Below are positions 3,466 through 44,430 of a DNA stretch of 64,000 nt, piece by piece. A program made the position numbers and the translations under genes. Within the stretch, counting starts at the first letter, position 1; the number at the start of each line of letters is the position of its first letter. Source of the DNA: Gemmatimonadales bacterium (GTDB lineage Bacteria; Gemmatimonadota; Gemmatimonadetes; Gemmatimonadales; JACORV01); the NCBI GenBank assembly GCA_035623395.1, contig DASPTN010000086.1, forward strand, positions 97,606-161,605, written 5' to 3'. The notes beneath the pieces are model-generated. The model did no database searches. It saw only the letters and a list, made by a program, of their open reading frames with translations, and was not told where the DNA came from.

Positions 3466-3476
3466 CGGCTGCGGCG

Positions 3477-4061
3477 TCAGGTCGGCGGGCTGCCGCCGAA
3501 CGACAGGTGGACGGTCACCACGACGTCCGGCGCCACGTGCAGGACCAGGGCGCGGACCGGCGGCCGGATGCCGAAGTCCCGCATGTCGAGACCGAAAGAG
3601 GCGTCGACGTCCTCGCCGCCCGGGCGTGCGACCGCCGTTGCGGTGGCTCGCAGCGGCCGTGTGACACCGTGCACCGCGAGCCTGCCGACCAAGACGACGC
3701 CGGTCGTGTCGCCCGAGACGGCGCCGGATGCGACGCTGTCGAGATCGAAGCGAATCGTCGGAAAGCTGTCCGCCCGCATCGCCTCCCGCATGTGGCTGTC
3801 CCGCAGCCCGTTGCCTGTGCGCATGTCCGCGACGAGCACCACCGCCGTGCCCCGGACTTCGGTCAACCGGCCTCCGGAGAACTCCGCGCTGGCGATGGGC
3901 GCCCGGCCCACGAAGTGCCCGACGAGCGTGGAGTGCAGGGTGAACGTGGCCTGACCGGCGGAGAACGGTGCGGTCACCACGGGCTGCGCGGTCGCCCCGT
4001 CGACGGGGACGGCGGCCATCAGCATGGCGGCGCCGCCGACGCGACTCAGCGCTCGCCACAT
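3477..4061 (-). CDS. YceI-like secreted/periplasmic protein
   Basis: Signal peptide (MWRALSRVGGAAMLMAAVPVDGATAQ) followed by a beta-rich domain of YceI size and pattern. Family call is from memory of YceI features only. Confidence 0.55.
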   Translation of the reverse strand: MWRALSRVGGAAMLMAAVPVDGATAQPVVTAPFSAGQATFTLHSTLVGHFVGRAPIASAEFSGGRLTEVRGTAVVLVADMRTGNGLRDSHMREAMRADSFPTIRFDLDSVASGAVSGDTTGVVLVGRLAVHGVTRPLRATATAVARPGGEDVDASFGLDMRDFGIRPPVRALVLHVAPDVVVTVHLSFGGSPPT

Positions 4062-5829: not shown

Positions 5830-7296
5830 ATGCGCATTGCGATCCTCGTCGTGCTCGCCCTCACGCCGGTGGCAGTGGCGGCGCAGCAGCCCGCGCCCGC
5901 TCCGGTGCGCCTGACGCTGGAAGGCGCCATCGAGCGCGCGCTGCGCTCCGGCAACGAGGTGCGGATCGCGGAGGCAGGCGTTCGCCAGGCCGAGGGGCAG
6001 GTGACCGAGGCCTGGGCGTCGGCGCTCCCGGAGATTCGCGCCAACGTCACCTACCAGCGGACGTTCGCCTCCGTGTTCCAGGACCTGGGCAGCGGGGTCC
6101 CGGTGTTCGCGCCGGACACGACGGCGTCGCTGGCCGCGCGGGTCAGCTACCTGGAGCGCAACGCGGGGATCGCGGCCTTCCAGGGGCTCGGGACGATGTT
6201 CTCGAGCACGGGCTTCGGGAGTCCCGACACCTACGTCGCCACCCTCACCCTCAGCCAGACGCTGTTCCAGGGCGGCAAGGTCGGCGCCGGCATCCGCGGC
6301 GCCCGTGCGTACGAGGAGGCTGCGCGGGCGCAGCTGGACGAGACGCGCCGGGAGGTGACGTACCGGGTCACCGTGGCCTATCTCGACGCGCTGTACGCCG
6401 CGCGGATCGTGGACATCTCCGAGGCGTCGCAGGTGCAGGTCAACGACCAGCTGCGCCACGTCTCCTTGAACCACCAGGTGGGCTCGGCGGCCGATTACGA
6501 CCTGCTGAGGGCGCAGGTCGAGGCCGCGAACCAGGAGCCCATGGTCATCGCGGCGCGCAACAGCCGGGACGTCGCGCTCCTCGAGGTGCGGCGCCTGGTG
6601 AACGTCCCGGCCGATCAGCCGGTGGAGCTGGTGAGCGGCCTGCTCCAGACGCCGGCCGACTCGCTGCCGCGCGTCGACCTCGCCGCGCTCGATCTCGACG
6701 CCGCCGGCCGGGCGGCGATCGAGGCGGCGCAGGCGAACGTCGACTTCCGGCGCGAAGCGGTCCACGTCTATCACGGTGACTACTACCCGTCGGTGAAGCT
6801 GCTCAGCTCGTTCGGCGGCCAGGCGTTTCCGCAGAGCGGCTTCCCGTCGCGGTTGACGGACTTCCACGAGGACTGGACGGCCTCGCTCGTCGTGTCGGTC
6901 CCGCTGTTCGACGGGCTCCGGACGCACGGCGCGGTGCAGCAGGCCGAAGCGGACCTGGCGCGCGCCGAGGCGCAGCTGTCCCAGACGCGGGAGAGCGTCG
7001 CCATCGAGATCGAGCAGGCCAGGGCGGAGATCGTCCGGGCGCAGGCGCTGGTGGTCGCGCGGCACGTGACGGTGGGCCAGGCGGAGCGGGCGCATCATCT
7101 GGCGTCGGTCCGCTACGCCAACGGGATCGCGACGGCGCTCGAGGTGTCGGACGCCCGCCTAGCGCTGCAGGCGGCGAGCGTCAACGAGGCGCAGGCGACG
7201 CGCGACTACCTGCTCGCCATCGCCGCGCTCGAGCGGGCGCTGGGGCATCCCGTACCGCTCCAGAACGCAGGTAATCGGATGGCGGAGGGGCAGTAG
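5830..7296 (+). CDS. TolC-family outer membrane efflux protein
   Basis: Signal peptide MRIAILVVLALTPVAVAAQ. 488 aa with two-repeat OEP architecture. First gene of the TolC-MFP-RND trio. Confidence 0.85.
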   Translation: MRIAILVVLALTPVAVAAQQPAPAPVRLTLEGAIERALRSGNEVRIAEAGVRQAEGQVTEAWASALPEIRANVTYQRTFASVFQDLGSGVPVFAPDTTASLAARVSYLERNAGIAAFQGLGTMFSSTGFGSPDTYVATLTLSQTLFQGGKVGAGIRGARAYEEAARAQLDETRREVTYRVTVAYLDALYAARIVDISEASQVQVNDQLRHVSLNHQVGSAADYDLLRAQVEAANQEPMVIAARNSRDVALLEVRRLVNVPADQPVELVSGLLQTPADSLPRVDLAALDLDAAGRAAIEAAQANVDFRREAVHVYHGDYYPSVKLLSSFGGQAFPQSGFPSRLTDFHEDWTASLVVSVPLFDGLRTHGAVQQAEADLARAEAQLSQTRESVAIEIEQARAEIVRAQALVVARHVTVGQAERAHHLASVRYANGIATALEVSDARLALQAASVNEAQATRDYLLAIAALERALGHPVPLQNAGNRMAEGQ

Positions 7297-15123: not shown

Positions 15124-16602
15124 ATGACCGTGGCCGCAACCAGGAATTCCTCCAAGCGCACGACCACCTCCAACGACAAGGCCTCCAGCCCGGCGGACGT
15201 GATCCGCCTCGCGAAGGAGACCGGCGTCCAGGTGGTGGACGTCCGCTTCACCGATCTGCCGGGCACCTGGCAGCACTTCTCGATTCCGGTCGGAGAGCTC
15301 AAGGAAGACATGTTCGAGGAAGGGCTCGGCTTCGACGGCTCGAGCATCCGCGGCTTCCAGGCCATCAACGAGAGCGACATGCTGCTGATGCCGGATCCGG
15401 CGTCCGCGTTCGTCGATCCGTGCCTGAAGGTGCCGACCCTGGTCCTGGTGTGCGACATCAAGGACCCCATCACGGGGGAGCGGTACAGCCGCGACCCGCG
15501 CTACGTGGCGCAGAAGGCCGAGCAGTACCTCGTCAAGAGCGGGATCGCGACCACGTCGTACTGGGGGCCGGAAGCCGAGTTCTACATCTTCAACTCGGTG
15601 CGCTTCGACCAGAACGCCCACGAGGGCTACTACCACATCGACTCGGAAGAGGGGATCTGGAACTCCGGCGAGGACAACGGGTCGCCGAACCTCGGGCACC
15701 GGCCACGGCACAAGGAAGGTTACTTCCCGGTGCCGCCGGTCGACCGGCTGCAGGACCTGCGGTCGAAGATCATGCTGGCCCTGATCGGGTCCGGCATCAA
15801 CGTCGAGGTGCAGCACCACGAGGTCGGGACGGCCGGCCAGGCCGAGATCGACATGCGGTTCGGAACGCTGGTCCGGATGGCGGACCAGGTCATGATGTAC
15901 AAGTACATCGTCAAGGGTGTGTGCCACGACAACGGCTACACGGCGACCTTCATGCCGAAGCCGATGTTCGGCGACAACGGCTCCGGGATGCATGTTCACC
16001 AGAGCCTGTGGAAGAACGGCACGAACCTGTTCTGGTCGGAACGGGGCTACGCCGGGCTGTCGGACATGGCGCGGTTCTACATCGGCGGCCTGATCAAGCA
16101 CGCCCCGGCGGTGCTCGCGTTCGCGGCGCCGACGACCAACTCGTACCGGCGGCTGGTGCCCGGATACGAGGCGCCGATCAATCTGATCTACTCGCAGCGC
16201 AACCGCAGCGCCGTGTGCCGGATTCCGATGTACTCGAAGTCGCCCAAGGCGAAGCGCATCGAGTTCCGCGCACCCGACCCGTCGTCGAACCCGTACCTGA
16301 CCTTCGCCGCGCTGCTGATGGCCGGTCTCGACGGCGTGAAGAACCGGATCGAGCCGCCGGCGCCGATCGACAAGGACCTCTACGATCTCGAGATGCACGA
16401 GCGCAAGCGGGTCAAGAACACGCCCGGCTCGCTGACCGAGGTGCTCGCGGCGCTGGAGAAGGACAGCGAATTCCTACTGCGTGGCGCAGTATTCACGCAG
16501 GACCTGCTCGACACGTGGATCGAGTACAAGACGAAGAAGGAGGTCGAGCCAGTAGCGCTCCGGCCGCATCCGTACGAGTTTTTCCTGTACTACGACGGAT
16601 GA
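15124..16602 (+). CDS. glnA: Glutamine synthetase type I-beta (adenylylation-type)
   Basis: Full-length GS signature (FTDLPGTWQHF, GFDGSSIRGF, MPKPMFGDNGSGMHVHQSLW, NSYRRLVPGYEAP). The IDKDLYDLE motif matches the Tyr adenylylation loop of E. coli-type GlnA. Confidence 0.95.
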   Translation: MTVAATRNSSKRTTTSNDKASSPADVIRLAKETGVQVVDVRFTDLPGTWQHFSIPVGELKEDMFEEGLGFDGSSIRGFQAINESDMLLMPDPASAFVDPCLKVPTLVLVCDIKDPITGERYSRDPRYVAQKAEQYLVKSGIATTSYWGPEAEFYIFNSVRFDQNAHEGYYHIDSEEGIWNSGEDNGSPNLGHRPRHKEGYFPVPPVDRLQDLRSKIMLALIGSGINVEVQHHEVGTAGQAEIDMRFGTLVRMADQVMMYKYIVKGVCHDNGYTATFMPKPMFGDNGSGMHVHQSLWKNGTNLFWSERGYAGLSDMARFYIGGLIKHAPAVLAFAAPTTNSYRRLVPGYEAPINLIYSQRNRSAVCRIPMYSKSPKAKRIEFRAPDPSSNPYLTFAALLMAGLDGVKNRIEPPAPIDKDLYDLEMHERKRVKNTPGSLTEVLAALEKDSEFLLRGAVFTQDLLDTWIEYKTKKEVEPVALRPHPYEFFLYYDG

Positions 16603-16624: not shown

Positions 16625-18100
16625 GTGCCAATGACCCCACGGGCGCGCAGGGTGCGCGCGGCGGTGTCAGGCGAGGCGGGCGCGACGGTCGTCGCGCCCG
16701 TTTCGTCTCATGCCGTGATGCGACCGTTGCCCATGGCCCTGGATGCCGACTACCGCGCGATGGTGCGGTCGAAGGACATCACCAAGGCCGACATCCTGGA
16801 GGTGTGCGACCGCCTCGGCGTGCGCTTCCTCCGGCTCCAGTTCACCGACATCCTCGGCGTGGTGAAGAACGTCGAGGTGCCGCGCAGTCAGTTCGAGAAG
16901 GCGCTCGACGCGCAGATCATGTTCGACGGCTCGTCGATCGAAGGCTTCGTCCGGATCGAGGAGTCGGACATGCTGCTCGCCCCGGACCTCGGCACCTTCC
17001 GGATCTTCCCCTGGGGCGCCGAGAGCGGGCTGGTGGCGCGGCTGATCTGCGACATCCGCAACACCGACGAGTCGGACTTCGCCGGCTGCCCGCGGCTGGC
17101 GCTCAAGCGGCAGGTGGCGCGGGCCCAGAAGCTCGGCTACACGATGATGGCCGGCGTGGAGGCCGAGTTCTTCCTGTTCTACAAGGACGCGCACGGCGAC
17201 CCGACCACCGAGGTGCACGACGTCGCCGGCTACTTCGACGTGGGCCCGGTGGACCGCGGCGAGCAGGCGCGACAGCTGATCGTGGCCGATCTCGAAGAGA
17301 TGGGCTTCGAGGTCGAGGCGGCGCACCACGAGGTGGCGCCCGGACAGCACGAGGTGGATTTCCGCTACGCCGACGCGCTCGAAACCGCCGACGACCTCTC
17401 GACGTTCCGGGTGGTCGTGCGGAGCGCCGCGGAGCGCTACGACCTCGTCGCGTCCTTCATGCCCAAGCCGATCTTCGGGCAGAACGGCTCGGGCATGCAC
17501 ACCCACCAGAGCCTGTTCAGAAACAGCAGTAACGCGTTCTACGACGCCAAGGCCGACTGGCAGCTGTCGAAGGTGGCGCTGCAGTACATCGCGGGGCTGC
17601 TTGAGCACGCGCGCGGCTTCTGCGCGGTCACGAACCCGCTGGTGAACAGCTTCAAGCGCCTGGTGCCGGGTTACGAGGCGCCGGTCAACATCGCCTGGAG
17701 CATGAAGAACCGCTCGCCGATGATCCGGATCCCGGATCGCCGCGAATCGGGAACGCGCTGCGAACTGCGGATGCCCGATCCGTCGGCCAACCCGTACCTG
17801 GCGCTCGCGGTGCAGCTCGCGGCGGGCCTGGACGGAATCGAGCGCAAGCTGACGCCGCCCGACCCGGTGAACAAGAACATCTTCACGATGACGTACCGGG
17901 AGCGCCGGCACCACCGGATCGACGACCTGCCCCGGGACCTGCACGAGGCGCTGGATTGCCTCGAGAGGGACCCGGTGATTTTGGGTGCGCTCGGCGAGCA
18001 CATCGCCGGCCGCTACGTCGAGGCCAAGCGCGCGGAGTGGGCGGAGTACATCTCGCAGGTCAGCGAGTGGGAGATCAGGAAGTATCTGGGACAGTACTGA
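16625..18100 (+). CDS. Glutamine synthetase type I-alpha (Bacillus-type paralogue)
   Basis: RLQFTDILGVVKNVEVP, MFDGSSIEGFVRIEESDM, HHEVAPGQHEVDF and NSFKRLVPGYEAP closely follow the B. subtilis GlnA pattern, and there is no adenylylation Tyr motif. The start is ambiguous: ATG 16625 has GGAG, while ATG 16733 and 16760 fit homologue length better. Confidence 0.9.
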   Translation: MPMTPRARRVRAAVSGEAGATVVAPVSSHAVMRPLPMALDADYRAMVRSKDITKADILEVCDRLGVRFLRLQFTDILGVVKNVEVPRSQFEKALDAQIMFDGSSIEGFVRIEESDMLLAPDLGTFRIFPWGAESGLVARLICDIRNTDESDFAGCPRLALKRQVARAQKLGYTMMAGVEAEFFLFYKDAHGDPTTEVHDVAGYFDVGPVDRGEQARQLIVADLEEMGFEVEAAHHEVAPGQHEVDFRYADALETADDLSTFRVVVRSAAERYDLVASFMPKPIFGQNGSGMHTHQSLFRNSSNAFYDAKADWQLSKVALQYIAGLLEHARGFCAVTNPLVNSFKRLVPGYEAPVNIAWSMKNRSPMIRIPDRRESGTRCELRMPDPSANPYLALAVQLAAGLDGIERKLTPPDPVNKNIFTMTYRERRHHRIDDLPRDLHEALDCLERDPVILGALGEHIAGRYVEAKRAEWAEYISQVSEWEIRKYLGQY

Positions 18101-18104
18101 AGGC

Positions 18105-18179
18105 GTGAGAGGTGAGGGGTGAGAAGCGAGAGGATCAAGAGAGAGGTGAGAAGGCGCAGTGAGAGGTGAGAAGGTGATT
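18105..18179 (+). repeat. Tandem heptamer array (GTGAGAN)x10, tandem SD-like GAGGTGA motifs
   Basis: GTGAGAG GTGAGGG GTGAGAA GCGAGAG GATCAA GAGAGAG GTGAGAA GGCGCA GTGAGAG GTGAGAA GGTGATT. Shares a 20-mer and its unit architecture with 42688..42755. Confidence 0.85.
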
Positions 18180-32326: not shown

Positions 32327-32398
<72 letters not shown>

Positions 32399-41930: not shown

Positions 41931-42683
41931 TCACACCTTGTGGTAGGTGACCCGCGCGGCCTCGGCGCCGTCCTCCGCCCGGTAGGTCTCGAAATCGCCG
42001 AACAGGCGCGGCGCCTCCGCCGTGAGCAGGCGCAGCACCGCCACCGCCATCCGCCGGATCTCCTGCTCCGCCCCCTCGCCGCACCGCAGCTCGAGCATCG
42101 TGCGCCAGGCGCGCACGTTGGCGCTCACCACGAGCTTGGTCTCGGTCGCGTTCGGCAGCAGCGAGCGCGCGGCCTCGCGCGCCATCTTCCGGCGGTGGAC
42201 CTTGTCCGCCACCCAGTCGTACCGCCGCATCAGGTCCTCGACGGCCTGAACGTACGCGGCCTGGGCCGCCGTCACCTGCGCCAGCCACTCGGCCTCCAGC
42301 TTCGCATCCCCCAGCATGGCCGGTGGCACCACGAACGCCGCGTGCGACTCGTCCACGTAGCGCTGGCTGAGCTGGCTGTAGCCGAAGCCGGCGCGGTGGC
42401 GCACCAGCTCGTGCGAGCAGGAGCGCGAGATGCCCTCGATCAGCAGCACGTAGACGCTGTGCTCGAGCACCGAGCCGTGCCCCTGCTTCTTGATGTTCTC
42501 GAGGTACTCGGCCGTGGAGCGCTGCGCCGGGTTGGCTTGGCTCATGTAGCACAGCCGGCCGGCGAACTCGGCCAGCTTCTCGGCGTCCGTGGCCTCGCCG
42601 CGCCAGCTGACGCGAAGGTGGGTGGGTTCCACGAATTGCGGACGGGCTAGGAGGGTGACCCGGGGTGCGCGGAGAATGTCCAC
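41931..42683 (-). CDS. thyX: FAD-dependent thymidylate synthase
   Basis: ThyX signature ...SHELVRHRAGFGYSQLSQRY (RHR...SxR). 250 aa. GTG start 42683 has no SD upstream. Confidence 0.9.
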   Translation of the reverse strand: MDILRAPRVTLLARPQFVEPTHLRVSWRGEATDAEKLAEFAGRLCYMSQANPAQRSTAEYLENIKKQGHGSVLEHSVYVLLIEGISRSCSHELVRHRAGFGYSQLSQRYVDESHAAFVVPPAMLGDAKLEAEWLAQVTAAQAAYVQAVEDLMRRYDWVADKVHRRKMAREAARSLLPNATETKLVVSANVRAWRTMLELRCGEGAEQEIRRMAVAVLRLLTAEAPRLFGDFETYRAEDGAEAARVTYHKV

Positions 42684-42687
42684 TAGT

Positions 42688-42755
42688 GTGAGAGGTGAGA
42701 GGTGAGGGGTGAGACGTTCACGTGAGACGTGAGAAGTGGAAGTGAGAGGTAAGCG
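42688..42755 (+). repeat. Tandem heptamer array (GTGAGAN)x10, homologous to 18105..18172
   Basis: GTGAGAG GTGAGAG GTGAGGG GTGAGAC GTTCAC GTGAGAC GTGAGAA GTGGAA GTGAGAG GTAAGCG. Identical 20-mer GTGAGAGGTGAGGGGTGAGA at 42695..42714 and 18105..18124. Confidence 0.85.
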
Positions 42756-42764
42756 TCCATCGTC

Positions 42765-44372
42765 TCACGCCGCCGCGGGCGCCAGCGACAACCGGAACAC
42801 GCCCCAGGCCGCGGAGCGCTCGACCTCGCGCAGCCGCGCGGCGATCTCGGCCGGGATCGGCGGAGCGGCCGCGCCGACCTTGAGCATCGAGGCGTCGAGC
42901 TTCGCGCCCGGCGCCGGCACCTTCACGCCCGGGTTGAGGATCCCCGCCGGGTCCCACGCCTCCTTGGTGCGCCGGCACAGGTCGGCGTAGCCCTCGCCGA
43001 ACGTCGACGCCAGGAAGGGCGCGCGCAGCCGTCCGTCGCCGTGCTCGCCCGACGGCGTTCCCCCGAGCGACAGCTGGGCTCCGGTCACCGCCTCGAGGCA
43101 TCCGAACAGGCGAGTGGCGAAATCGGGCGCCGCGACGTTGGCCAGCACGTTGGCGTGGAGATGCCCGTCCCCGGCGTGCCCGAAGATCACGATCTCGAAG
43201 CCGAACGCGGCCGCCGCCTCGCGGAGCGCACGGATGTAGCGGCCGAGGACCGCGACCGGCACGCAGCCGTCCTCGACCAGCTGCAGCGAGCGGAGGTTGT
43301 TCGGCAGCGACGCCAGGATGGGGCTCGCGAGGTGACGGAGCTCCCACAGCCGGCTCACCGACGCGACGTCGTCGGCCAGCTCGGTCGTCTCGGCGAGGCC
43401 CCGCACCGCGCCGACGGCCTGGTGTCCGTCGCTCTCGAACTCGACCAGCAGGACCGCCTCGGTGCCGTCGGGCACCCGGCGCTGGATGGCGCCGCGCACG
43501 AAATCGAGATAGGTGCGGTCCAGCAGCTCGATCGCCGAGGGCCCGTGCGGGCGCAGCGCGAGCACCGCGGGCCCGACGTCGTCGAGCGAGCGCAACGTCA
43601 CGAGCAGCGTGGAGCGATCGTCCGGCAGCGGCGCGAGGGCGACCTCGACGGCGGTCACGACGGCCAGCGTGCCCTCGCTGCCGGTCAGCAGCTCGGCCGT
43701 GCGCCCGCTGGCGGCGTACGCGTCGAGCGCGTAGCCGGCGGAGTTCTTGGTCGTGCGGGGCACCGCGCCGGCCAGGTCCGCGGCGCGCTCGCGGAGACCC
43801 GGAGCCACTTCGCGCAGGAACCGTTGCTCGGCCGCCGTCGGCGGCGGCAGGCTCGCGGCGCCGTCGACCGCGCCGGCTTCGCCGTCGGCCGTCACGAACT
43901 CCAGGCCACGCACCCAGCGCCGCATCGCGCCGTACTTCACGCTGTGCGCGCCGGCGGCGTTGGTGGCGACCATGCCGCCCAGCGTGCAGAACGCGCCGCT
44001 CGACGGGTCCGGCGGCAGCCTGAGCCCGTAGCCGGCGGCGGCAGCGTTGAGCGCCTGGTACGTGATGGACGCACCGCACCGCGCCGTCCCCGCCGCCGCG
44101 TCGATCGCCGGCGGCTCACGGAAGCCTGCCGAGAGGTCCACCACGACGCCGGGGCCGATGTTCCCGCCGGGCATCCCGCTGCCGGCGCCCCGGGGCACCA
44201 GGGCGTGCCCGCCGGCCCGGGCCCAGTGCACGAGCGCGACCAGGTCGTCGCGGCCCGCCGGCACGGCGACGGCCTCGGGTACGATGCGGAAAATGCCCGC
44301 GCCCTCGGCGTACAGGGCGCGGGCGACGTCGTCGGTGCGGAACTCTCCGCGGAAGCCGGGGGGGGCGCGCAC
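42765..44372 (-). CDS. FAD-linked oxidase (GlcD/D-lactate dehydrogenase-like)
   Basis: FAD_binding_4 pattern (VPRGAGSGMPGGNIG) and a C-terminal FAD-oxidase_C region (GTPSGEHGDGRLR). Confidence 0.8.
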   Translation of the reverse strand: MRAPPGFRGEFRTDDVARALYAEGAGIFRIVPEAVAVPAGRDDLVALVHWARAGGHALVPRGAGSGMPGGNIGPGVVVDLSAGFREPPAIDAAAGTARCGASITYQALNAAAAGYGLRLPPDPSSGAFCTLGGMVATNAAGAHSVKYGAMRRWVRGLEFVTADGEAGAVDGAASLPPPTAAEQRFLREVAPGLRERAADLAGAVPRTTKNSAGYALDAYAASGRTAELLTGSEGTLAVVTAVEVALAPLPDDRSTLLVTLRSLDDVGPAVLALRPHGPSAIELLDRTYLDFVRGAIQRRVPDGTEAVLLVEFESDGHQAVGAVRGLAETTELADDVASVSRLWELRHLASPILASLPNNLRSLQLVEDGCVPVAVLGRYIRALREAAAAFGFEIVIFGHAGDGHLHANVLANVAAPDFATRLFGCLEAVTGAQLSLGGTPSGEHGDGRLRAPFLASTFGEGYADLCRRTKEAWDPAGILNPGVKVPAPGAKLDASMLKVGAAAPPIPAEIAARLREVERSAAWGVFRLSLAPAAA

Positions 44373-44401
44373 GGGCGCAAGCTAACGGCCGCGCCTCGAG
44401 C

Positions 44402-44430
44402 TTGACAAGCACTTTCGCGTCGGTGATACT
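44402..44430 (+). promoter_or_regulatory. Sigma70-type promoter TTGACA-17 nt-GATACT, 9 nt before ATG 44440 (near-leaderless)
   Basis: TTGACA 44402..44407, 17-nt spacer, GATACT 44425..44430, then cgcgccttc, then ATG. No SD. Confidence 0.55.

Follow-up and report, generated by a model that had tools for sequence, protein, structure and literature searches.

In many bacteria, long simple repeats are most commonly built of heptamers, and very little has been learned about the functions of such repeats. Here, we analyze a heptamer array (array A) that separates the gene for a FAD-linked oxidase from thyX in a stretch of DNA of 64,000 nucleotides (nt) from a Gemmatimonadales bacterium; the whole of this stretch is referred to below as the window. 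Array A very probably represents a single arm of an intergenic, palindromic family of repeats specific to a clade of Gemmatimonadales with a GC content of about 70-75%, and the sequence data lead us to favor, by a modest degree, the view that it would serve in the leader of thyX as a relay for translational coupling. The family itself is a previously undescribed variant among the heptamer-array and repetitive extragenic palindromic (REP) kinds of repeats.

REP, BIME, and REPIN sequences occur in Enterobacteria and Pseudomonas as hundreds of extragenic palindromes, whose sites follow stop codons, fall inside operons, or separate genes that converge. They are often arranged as inverted pairs and possess a genome-specific consensus, and those close to stop codons affect translation and mRNA stability. 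Intergenic heptamer repeats have been described in Xanthomonas (GGGAATC) and Nostoc (GGGGAYT), with some 180 arrays in each genome (Rehm et al., 2015; PMC4692102). Of the GGGAATC arrays in Xanthomonas, about 90% are intergenic, at a mean distance of 28 nt from the end of the upstream open reading frame (ORF), and they are rare between divergent genes; 70-75 cases per genome are convergent inverted pairs with the potential to form a stem-loop, and the orthologous genes of sister species do not retain the same arrays (PMC4692102). Heptanucleotide units represent the dominant class of long simple sequence repeats (SSRs), which are intergenic and often directly precede start codons devoid of a Shine-Dalgarno (SD) sequence; the TAACTGA repeats of the Beggiatoaceae precede such SD-less starts, and S1, Csp, and CsrA have been proposed as their readers (PMC4679880). 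Termination-reinitiation couples neighboring genes only if they overlap or lie very close together, and the coupling has disappeared at 20-38 nt; gene pairs are most commonly spaced as overlaps of -1 and -4 (Huber et al., 2023; PMC10666635).

The features of the window on which the analysis is centered are as follows.

42688-42755, + strand (purine strand): array A, very probably a solo arm of a palindromic heptamer-array element (Tandem Repeats Finder, arm profile, identity to locus L031, orthologs L175, L176, and L177)
18105-18172, + strand: array B, the sister solo arm (arm profile, E = 3.1e-5; alignment to array A)
41931-42683, - strand: thyX, FAD-dependent thymidylate synthase of 250 amino acids (aa), GTG start without an SD sequence
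42765-44372, - strand: gene of the FAD-linked oxidase, which forms the upstream cistron (orthologs with the Pfam domains FAD_binding_4 and FAD-oxidase_C)

The + strand of array A reads GTGAGAG GTGAGAG GTGAGGG GTGAGAC GTTCAC GTGAGAC GTGAGAA GTGGAA GTGAGAG GTAAGCG, i.e., ten units made up of four heptamers, GTTCAC, two heptamers, GTGGAA, and two heptamers. It occupies the 81-nt gap between the TGA codon of the oxidase gene (42765-42767) and the GTG codon of thyX (42683), both of which are read from the minus strand, and leaves 9 nt to the oxidase stop and 4 nt to the thyX start. Since the purine strand is the + strand, the minus-strand mRNA bears the pyrimidine arm, (CUCUCAC)n. An earlier note on this DNA had given the same sequence and placement, and we found them correct letter for letter. 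The same is true for its description of array B as a 68-nt array with the identical 4-(6)-2-(6)-2 order of units; its estimate by eye that about three quarters of the aligned positions match compares with 53 identical positions out of 68 (78%) in an ungapped alignment. The 20-mer GTGAGAGGTGAGGGGTGAGA, which the two arrays had been said to share, is present at 18105 and 42695 and nowhere else in the window, and its two sites, when measured from the array starts, are consequently offset by one heptamer. Both arrays have periods of 7 and 20 according to Tandem Repeats Finder, with 9.3 copies at period 7 in array A. When the two-heptamer probe GTGAGAGGTGAGAG was used with up to two mismatches, 12 matches were found in the window versus 0.47 expected, and ten of these fall in arrays A and B, on the + strand throughout. 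In consisting of intergenic tandem 7-nt units that extend further than chance would produce, array A resembles a long heptameric SSR in the sense of Mrazek (2007).

The palindromic heptamer-array family

A scan of the GTDB genome collection for three GTGAGRG units returned at least 120 matches from many phyla, with 16 Gemmatimonadales genomes among the matches listed; in many of the matches, a purine array is followed by a short spacer and then by its complement. The locus L031 (Gemmatimonadales SMAG_U12260, 74% GC) is 85% identical to array A over 82 nt, the GTTCAC spacer included, and it is a full copy with both arms; it stems from the same assembly as the thyX ortholog L176. Metagenomes were scanned with the architecture-specific 20-mer GTGAGASGTTCAMGTGAGAC, and this recovered 54 loci. 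Fifty-two of them, at about 70-75% GC, contain the same composite arm, mostly as inverted pairs, and the remaining two (48-49% GC) are without an array. A profile hidden Markov model (HMM) of the arm, built from 49 arms that all come from outside the window, detected array A over model positions 2-73 of 75 (E = 3.6e-14). It detected array B with the E value listed above, likewise across almost the full model, and it found no further match in the window. Chance or independent slippage as the source of the arrays is excluded by the shuffle counts, the HMM matches, and the common non-heptamer spacers. The contention of the earlier note that one is dealing with a dispersed homologous element and not with two slippage events is borne out by the composite arm with GTTCAM and G-N-AAAGGC in the 52 metagenome loci and a GTDB genome. 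The same note had held that a lack of further copies and of conservation in relatives would make the pair a chance duplication; instead, copies exist elsewhere and the orthologous site is kept in three relatives. The case shows that a heptamer family need not arise by local slippage but can be a composite palindrome with homologous copies.

Full copies measure about 150 nt and consist of a purine arm, a short loop, and the reverse-complementary pyrimidine arm. The purine arm is composed of three to four GTGAGRN units, GTTCAM, two GTGAGAS units, a G-rich spacer of 6-10 nt (G-N-AAAGGC), and one to two GTGAGAG units; its consensus is GTGAGAG GTGAGGG GTGAGAG GTGAGAC GTTCAA GTGAGAC GTGAGAG GCGAAAGGC GTGAGAG GTGAG. 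The GTGAG cores are conserved to at least 90% throughout the family, while unit positions 6 and 7 are variable, and an outer GTGAAGC/GCTTCAC unit is frequent at the flanks of full copies. No full palindrome is present in the window. A reverse-complementary partner arm is missing within about 90 nt of array A, where we found a single CTCAC/GTGAG unit at 42764-42768, and array A is therefore a solo (half) copy, like loci L121, L140, and L165. The single unit is part of the following feature.

42761-42771, - strand: GGCGTGAGACG on the mRNA, a single GTGAG unit containing the oxidase stop codon; judged by its sequence, it might be all that is left of a purine arm since lost

Because the family normally forms a palindrome, half-copies are expected in both orientations. 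The occurrence of arrays A and B in opposite orientations relative to their genes, which the earlier note had read as suggesting either a DNA-level role or an independent + strand transcript, is thus predicted by the family itself.

All family loci that we examined are intergenic, with no intragenic copy among them. A crude GC3-based gene caller placed about 25 copies between tandem, 11 between convergent, and four between divergent genes; these counts are approximate because the caller mis-assigned several loci, e.g., L031, which was called divergent but is actually tandem. The arms begin about -17 to +25 nt relative to the adjoining stop codon, and array A, too, is intergenic and no more than about 25 nt away from a stop codon. 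Twenty-six of the 62 genes that adjoin a purine arm in the metagenome loci stop inside the arm, at the TGA of its first, second, or third GTGAG unit (offsets -3, -10, and -17), since (GTGAGAG)3 has a TGA in all three frames. With the seed copy of each locus left aside, there are about 48 copies per Mb; two copies are present in the 64 kb of the window, and the overall figure is about 30-50 per Mb. A search of plasmid sequences for the element yielded no copies.

Among the GTDB matches listed, the purine arm is the 5' arm in 23 cases and the pyrimidine arm in none, on either strand, and this set spans at least eight lineages outside the Gemmatimonadales; pyrimidine-first pairs are also absent from the metagenome set. 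If the relay described below is real, the purine-first polarity would be a rule for which every model of these elements has to account. Its presence in at least nine bacterial lineages might reflect a general constraint, e.g., hiding C-rich RNA from Rho, an idea to which we assign a low probability. The lineages with purine-first arrays include Gammaproteobacteria, Betaproteobacteria, Acidobacteriota, Bacteroidota, and Cyanobacteria (L027, L033, L034, L041, L057, L058, L065, and L105), in addition to eleven Gemmatimonadales loci.

The nearest described analog of the Gemmatimonadales family is the GGGAATC repeat of Xanthomonas, which likewise consists of G-rich intergenic heptamers near the ends of upstream ORFs and occurs in inverted pairs. 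In contrast to it, the arm found in Gemmatimonadales has a fixed composite structure, with conserved non-heptamer spacers and a set order of units, and its copies are homologous over about 70 nt. Its units contain no G3 tracts, so that there is no potential for a G-quadruplex; array A, with its GTGAGAG units, has a single GGGG and not four tracts of three or more G residues. Furthermore, the purine arm provides stop codons to neighboring genes, and one copy is conserved at an orthologous position with an ORF running through it. The element resembles REP sequences in being extragenic, stop-proximal, and palindromic, but it differs from them in having arms of about 70 nt built from tandem heptamers where REP and REPIN sequences have an imperfect palindrome of 20-40 nt, and in repeating a GTGAG core every 7 nt in place of the conserved 5' GTAG tetranucleotide of REPs. 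The short tandemly repeated repetitive sequences (STRRs) of cyanobacteria, the TAACTGA repeats of the Beggiatoaceae, and the long SSRs of Mrazek are direct arrays of variable copy number, whereas the copy number of the Gemmatimonadales array is frozen across orthologs and the usual form of the element is palindromic.

Two unusual arrangements were seen in the course of this survey. In L147 (3603-4163; identical to L155) and L130 (1501-2062; identical to L151), the arms are about 430 nt apart around a short unassigned stretch and do not form a compact hairpin. In L083 (about 6560-6760; a Gemmatimonadales metagenome-assembled genome) and L041 (5980-6100; Hymenobacter), heptamer arrays flank the hairpin motif GTCATCCTGAGCG(A/C)AGCGAAGGATC.

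Conservation of the thyX copy and a candidate relay reading frame

None of the first 174 loci was orthologous to the oxidase-thyX junction, and relatives were reached by protein look-ups. The gene order DUF116, oxidase, thyX is retained in nine of nine related genomes, and an EF-G-like gene is found past thyX in seven of the nine. Three of them (L175, L176, and L177), whose ThyX proteins are 92-94% identical, possess an orthologous solo arm in the same orientation and without any indel within the array; the sole length difference among the four orthologs is 3 nt and lies outside the array. Slippage-type variation in copy number is thus absent from array A across four orthologs in which the third codon positions of thyX are 75-85% identical. 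The identity of the gap as a whole (74-82%) is on par with that of these third positions. At the level of single columns, the CTCAC cores are invariant at 33 of 40 positions as compared with 56 of 124 fourfold-degenerate sites of thyX (Fisher p = 4e-5), and the linker and flank columns at 11 of 29, a neutral-looking value. This one copy therefore shows position-specific conservation that exceeds that of synonymous sites. The more remote lineages have other spacers at the oxidase-thyX junction, each C-rich and G-poor in the thyX sense: (CCCAATCA)n in L178, (TTCATCAC)n in L179, (CCCTGAC)5 in L180, and spacers without a repeat in L182 and L186. The two genes are directly coupled in L181, with a gap of 2 nt. 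The (CCCTGAC)5 array of L180 (2460-2500) corresponds in its close relative L181 (2490-2503) to a single CCTGACC across the oxidase stop and the thyX start, and in this comparison of sequences it looks like local growth from a seed heptamer.

The earlier note had overlooked that the pyrimidine strand is open in the appropriate frame, where it forms a short ORF connecting the stop of the oxidase gene with the start of thyX.

42683-42760, - strand: candidate relay ORF, 25 codons plus stop, MDAYLSLPLLTSHVNVSPLTSHLSH (frame analysis, conservation in L176 and L177, chance tests)

The ATG codon of this ORF is located 4 nt past the oxidase TGA, its frame spans the entire pyrimidine arm, and the last letter of its TAG doubles as the first letter of the thyX GTG. 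Both junctions have the geometry of termination-reinitiation (+4 nt and a 1-nt overlap), and so do those of L176 and L177. In these two relatives, the ATG is kept, the ORF comprises 26 codons, and it ends in a TGA/ATG overlap in L176 and a TAA/ATG overlap in L177; hence, the stop codon co-varies with the start codon. The ATG lies in a conserved CGATG block within a lead in which the remaining four columns are all variable. Two junctions with non-homologous spacers are similarly arranged: in L180, the oxidase stop is overlapped by a TTG, and a TAA that abuts the ATG follows 14 codons on; in L186, an ATG at +1 opens a frame of 18 codons, the stop of which ends at +10 relative to the thyX start. 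In shuffled spacers, a relay arises by chance with frequencies of 0.002 (window), 0.014, and 0.018; with the array fixed and only the flanks randomized, the frequency is 0.009.

The oxidase and thyX genes are probably co-transcribed, since the 81-nt gap contains no match to a promoter or terminator. A gap of this size exceeds the reach of direct termination-reinitiation, and the 25-codon ORF would span it: ribosomes leaving the oxidase would restart at the ATG 4 nt on, translate the pyrimidine arm, end at the TAG that overlaps the thyX GTG, and reinitiate on thyX. The sequence (CTCTCAC)n would suit such a relay, as it has no stop codon in any frame and is nearly G-free and thus unable to fold on itself; the sense-strand RNA of the array A region has no significant predicted structure (z = -1.1). 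If the relay operates, the gain or loss of a heptamer (7 nt) would break the frame, which would account for the frozen copy number. We infer here a specific mechanism that has statistical support, and we regard the chances that it operates at the thyX copy as evenly poised. Its single steps are those of known termination-reinitiation, with a restart 4 nt past a stop codon and 1-nt overlaps (UAGUG, UGAUG, and UAAUG); in contrast to known coupling, two junctions would be chained via a 25-codon ORF whose body is the arm of a repeat element. We found no description of such a chained arrangement in the papers cited here. The thyX copy can thus be assigned a testable role, i.e., carrying ribosomes across an 81-nt gap by chained restart in a phylum in which SD sequences are scarce, and if this role is real, the arms of the repeat would be raw material for intercistronic relay ORFs. 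For genome annotation, these findings call for caution since a stop-free pyrimidine strand invites false N-terminal extensions, and short ORFs within it are easily missed.

The same locus could be a neutral relic, namely the decaying half of a selfish palindrome without any function for the host, which is conserved through descent and occasional gene conversion and whose ORF is a by-product. The match between gap identity (74-82%) and third-position identity (75-85%) is what such a relic should display, solo arms do occur in both orientations, and L175 tolerates a broken ORF. Moreover, conversion from varied donors would hold the cores and scramble the linkers, as observed. We nevertheless consider a relic unlikely, because it leaves unaccounted for the maintenance of three different stop/start overlaps (TAG/GTG, TGA/ATG, and TAA/ATG), an ATG at +4 in a conserved CGATG block, a single indel of exactly 3 nt, the rarity of a chance relay even with the array fixed (0.9% of trials), and the arrival of two unrelated spacers at the same arrangement.

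SD use is low in this Gemmatimonadales genome: 30% of 33 confident starts in the window have SD-like pairing (-6 kcal/mol or stronger to the 16S tail) as compared with 20% of random positions. The earlier note had rightly recorded that thyX lacks an SD sequence; against this background, such a lack is normal and does not set thyX apart. The C/G skew amounts to +0.73 in the leader of thyX, in comparison with -0.71 in that of the HAD gene downstream of array B and -0.01 +/- 0.17 in the other leaders of the window. Ribosomal protein S1 prefers pyrimidine-rich leaders. The C/U-rich leader might remain untranslated and serve as a structure-free landing pad that loads 30S subunits via S1 or cold-shock-type OB-fold proteins (about 7 nt each) and replaces the SD sequence. 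The skew and the weak self-structure of the leader, the scarcity of SD sites, the C-rich and G-poor spacer at this junction in every lineage, even with another repeat unit, and the 7-nt phasing with conserved 5-nt cores, which suits sequence recognition, are all compatible with such a pad; in addition, a review describes CspB as binding to heptamer repeats at a ratio of one protein molecule to each heptamer (PMC4679880). However, a landing pad predicts neither a conserved ATG nor a frame-preserving length nor a stop that overlaps the start, and the linker positions accept G, so that we view it as improbable.

The composition of the leader is also relevant to Rho, which prefers C-rich, G-poor, unstructured RNA. 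About 70 nt of exposed RNA of this kind could form a rut-like site at which transcription terminates between oxidase and thyX when translation is poor; in the full palindromes, the purine arm would be transcribed first so that the pyrimidine arm pairs at once. The 81-nt gap contains 43% C and 11% G, and the purine-first polarity (23:0 among the matches listed) is as predicted if exposed C-rich RNA is avoided. The case for Rho is, however, purely compositional, a translated relay ORF would keep the site covered by ribosomes, and pyrimidine-sense solo arms are not obviously avoided (about four versus three independent cases). We deem Rho loading very unlikely.

Several results weigh against the relay as the function of array A. 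In L175, the ATG and the TAG/GTG overlap are kept, but a TGA that results from a core mutation cuts the ORF at codon 17. No relay ORF is present in L178, L179, and L182, despite their C-rich spacers, and none was found at the other pyrimidine-sense solo arms: L121 has an ORF of half length, with 16 codons and its stop in the TTGAAC spacer, whereas L122 and L157 do not lend themselves to this comparison. A relay requires just an open frame and leaves the core-specific conservation of CTCAC unexplained; possible causes of the latter are gene conversion with other copies as donors and a reader that recognizes the sequence. Moreover, the relay cannot apply to array B or to the other solo arms. The full copies add further points on this side. 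They fold as hairpins of 60-70 bp with predicted energies of -46 to -139 kcal/mol (L031: -98 kcal/mol, z = -9.3), and there is no asymmetry between sense and antisense strands, given that 13 of 25 hairpins are more stable in the sense direction (p = 0.53) and that G-U pairs number 105 versus 102. Compensatory evolution of the arms was not detected, with an identity of 0.62 between the arms within an element and 0.65 between elements. Taken together, these two results indicate that the hairpin derives from the palindromic family consensus. For full copies, both an RNA-hairpin function and transposition are thus hypothetical: their flanks show no target-site duplication, and only eight of 86 flanks have T-rich tails.

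These properties also bear on what kind of element the full copies represent. The lack of asymmetry in stability and G-U pairs speaks against RNA-level selection of the hairpin in the sense direction. As long intergenic inverted repeats with a strong GC-rich hairpin after genes, the full copies are reminiscent of MITEs (miniature inverted-repeat transposable elements) and terminators. However, the absence of the target-site duplication typical of MITEs from the flanks of 44 non-identical full copies (among which there are a few orthologous pairs) eliminates a transposon signature, and the rare T-rich tails eliminate an intrinsic terminator, no site for which (GC-rich hairpin plus U tract) exists at the window copy within 42300-43100. 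A known RNA family is ruled out as well, since the arrays match no Rfam family at gathering thresholds; the full L031 copy gave sub-threshold matches, mostly to miRNA hairpin families, the best of which scored 44 bits versus a threshold of 100. That the full copies act in the manner of REP elements, as hairpins next to stop codons, is conceivable but doubtful.

E. coli REP elements bind gyrase and IHF. The GTGAG cores could similarly form a DNA-level array that is bound by a nucleoid-associated or mobilizing protein, or the + strand could encode a separate small RNA. Both window arrays are on the + strand whatever the direction of their genes, the cores are conserved in either orientation, and the hairpins lack strand asymmetry, as would be expected in either case. 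Yet two arrays fall on the same strand in half of all cases by chance, and a spacing of 7 bp places the sites off one helix face. The independent + strand transcript that the earlier note had proposed finds no backing in a sigma-70 promoter or terminator consensus or in an Rfam family, and we regard the DNA-level and small-RNA readings as extremely unlikely.

The glnA-HAD junction and unit types across genomes

Array B is positioned between the stop codon of a glnA-like gene (18100) and the start of a HAD hydrolase gene (GTG 18174 or 18159), with its purine strand in the mRNA sense. This strand has stops in all frames and hence cannot serve as a relay; at the glnA-HAD junction, we detected no clear bridging ORF but many mini-ORFs of 5-16 codons. 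The final units of array B put a GAGG 7 nt before the probable HAD start (GTG 18174), so that array B, in its opposite orientation, would offer an SD-like sequence to the HAD gene. A perfect (GTGAGAG)3 array reads GTG AGA GGT GAG AGG TGA in one frame, i.e., a five-codon mini-ORF with an SD-like sequence upstream that recurs every 21 nt (18105-18172; L185 3472-3534). The gene upstream of array B belongs to a tandem pair of type I glutamine synthetase paralogs (15124-16602 and 16625-18100), and this pair is kept in L183-L185.

The glnA-HAD junctions of the relatives differ in their spacers: L185 has a (GTGATGR)5-GCGGGA-(GTGATGR)3 array (3472-3534), L183 has a G/T-rich spacer, and L184, which resides on the same contig as L186, has no array (3471-3501). 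Accordingly, units of the GTGATGR type are present at both junctions in the L178/L185 lineage (L178 2454-2500 for oxidase-thyX), in complementary senses, and the repeat is found at neither junction, and not at all in 20 kb, in the L184/L186 lineage (L186 9953-10000). Presence and type of the unit thus co-vary between two unlinked junctions in three lineages, a small sample in which the link between L178 and L185 is indirect. This co-variation points to a genome-wide process, and the type of unit seems to characterize a genome as a whole and not an individual locus.

One could envisage, with a probability that we set low, that the GTGAG-core arrays constitute a lineage-specific, genome-wide system in which a trans-acting single-strand binding factor reads the cores in a 7-nt register. 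Such a reader would account for the concerted change of units, with GTGAGAG at both junctions in the lineage of the window, GTGATGR at both in L178/L185, and no array at either in L184/L186. Within such a system, half-copies might have been recruited for initiation in an SD-poor and apparently leaderless-rich phylum, with the pyrimidine strand as a stop-free relay and the purine strand as an SD array; this, too, strikes us as a rather improbable scenario.

The complementary senses of the units at the two junctions of L178/L185, together with the absence of arrays from both junctions of L184/L186, would also fit an antisense partnership. UCACCUC copies the 3' end of 16S rRNA and could, as an anti-SD mimic, pair with purine arms in cis or on other mRNAs such as glnA-HAD, with translation control or cleavage by RNase III as the outcome. 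GAGGUGA and UCACCUC are indeed complementary, and the predicted duplex of the two window transcripts (-96 kcal/mol) is far more stable than those of shuffled sequences (-53 +/- 6 kcal/mol). The duplex is nevertheless uninformative because any two family arms of opposite sense are complementary, and SD sites are little used in this genome. The resemblance to the anti-SD sequence noted earlier is a true fact of the sequence, but it is not needed to explain the unit, which is no commoner than composition-matched controls: arrays of GTGAGRG were found in 42 viral loci, those of the reversed unit in 34, and those of a permuted unit in 30. These control counts rule out SD complementarity as the reason for the spread of the unit, and we consider an antisense partnership to be highly improbable.

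Upstream of the oxidase gene, the arrangement TTGTCA-18 nt-TAGCTT-6 nt-GTG suggests a promoter that would produce a leaderless mRNA. TAGCTT- or TAGACT-like -10 boxes were observed 6-8 nt before the starts at 44372 (oxidase; 44373-44412, minus strand), 2715, 14187, 2594, and 22292, and their proximity to the starts suggests that many mRNAs of the source genome may be leaderless. A scan of the window against Rfam gave a single match at gathering thresholds.

32327-32398, + strand: tRNA gene, the lone Rfam match of the window

Among the 120 closest homologs of the window ThyX, 116 are 250-251 aa long with full query coverage, and the named ones are from Gemmatimonadales, to which the window is assigned on this basis. 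One homolog of 314 aa (P0004) possesses an internal duplication of about 60 residues, in which REAARSVLPNATE...RRMA occurs twice.

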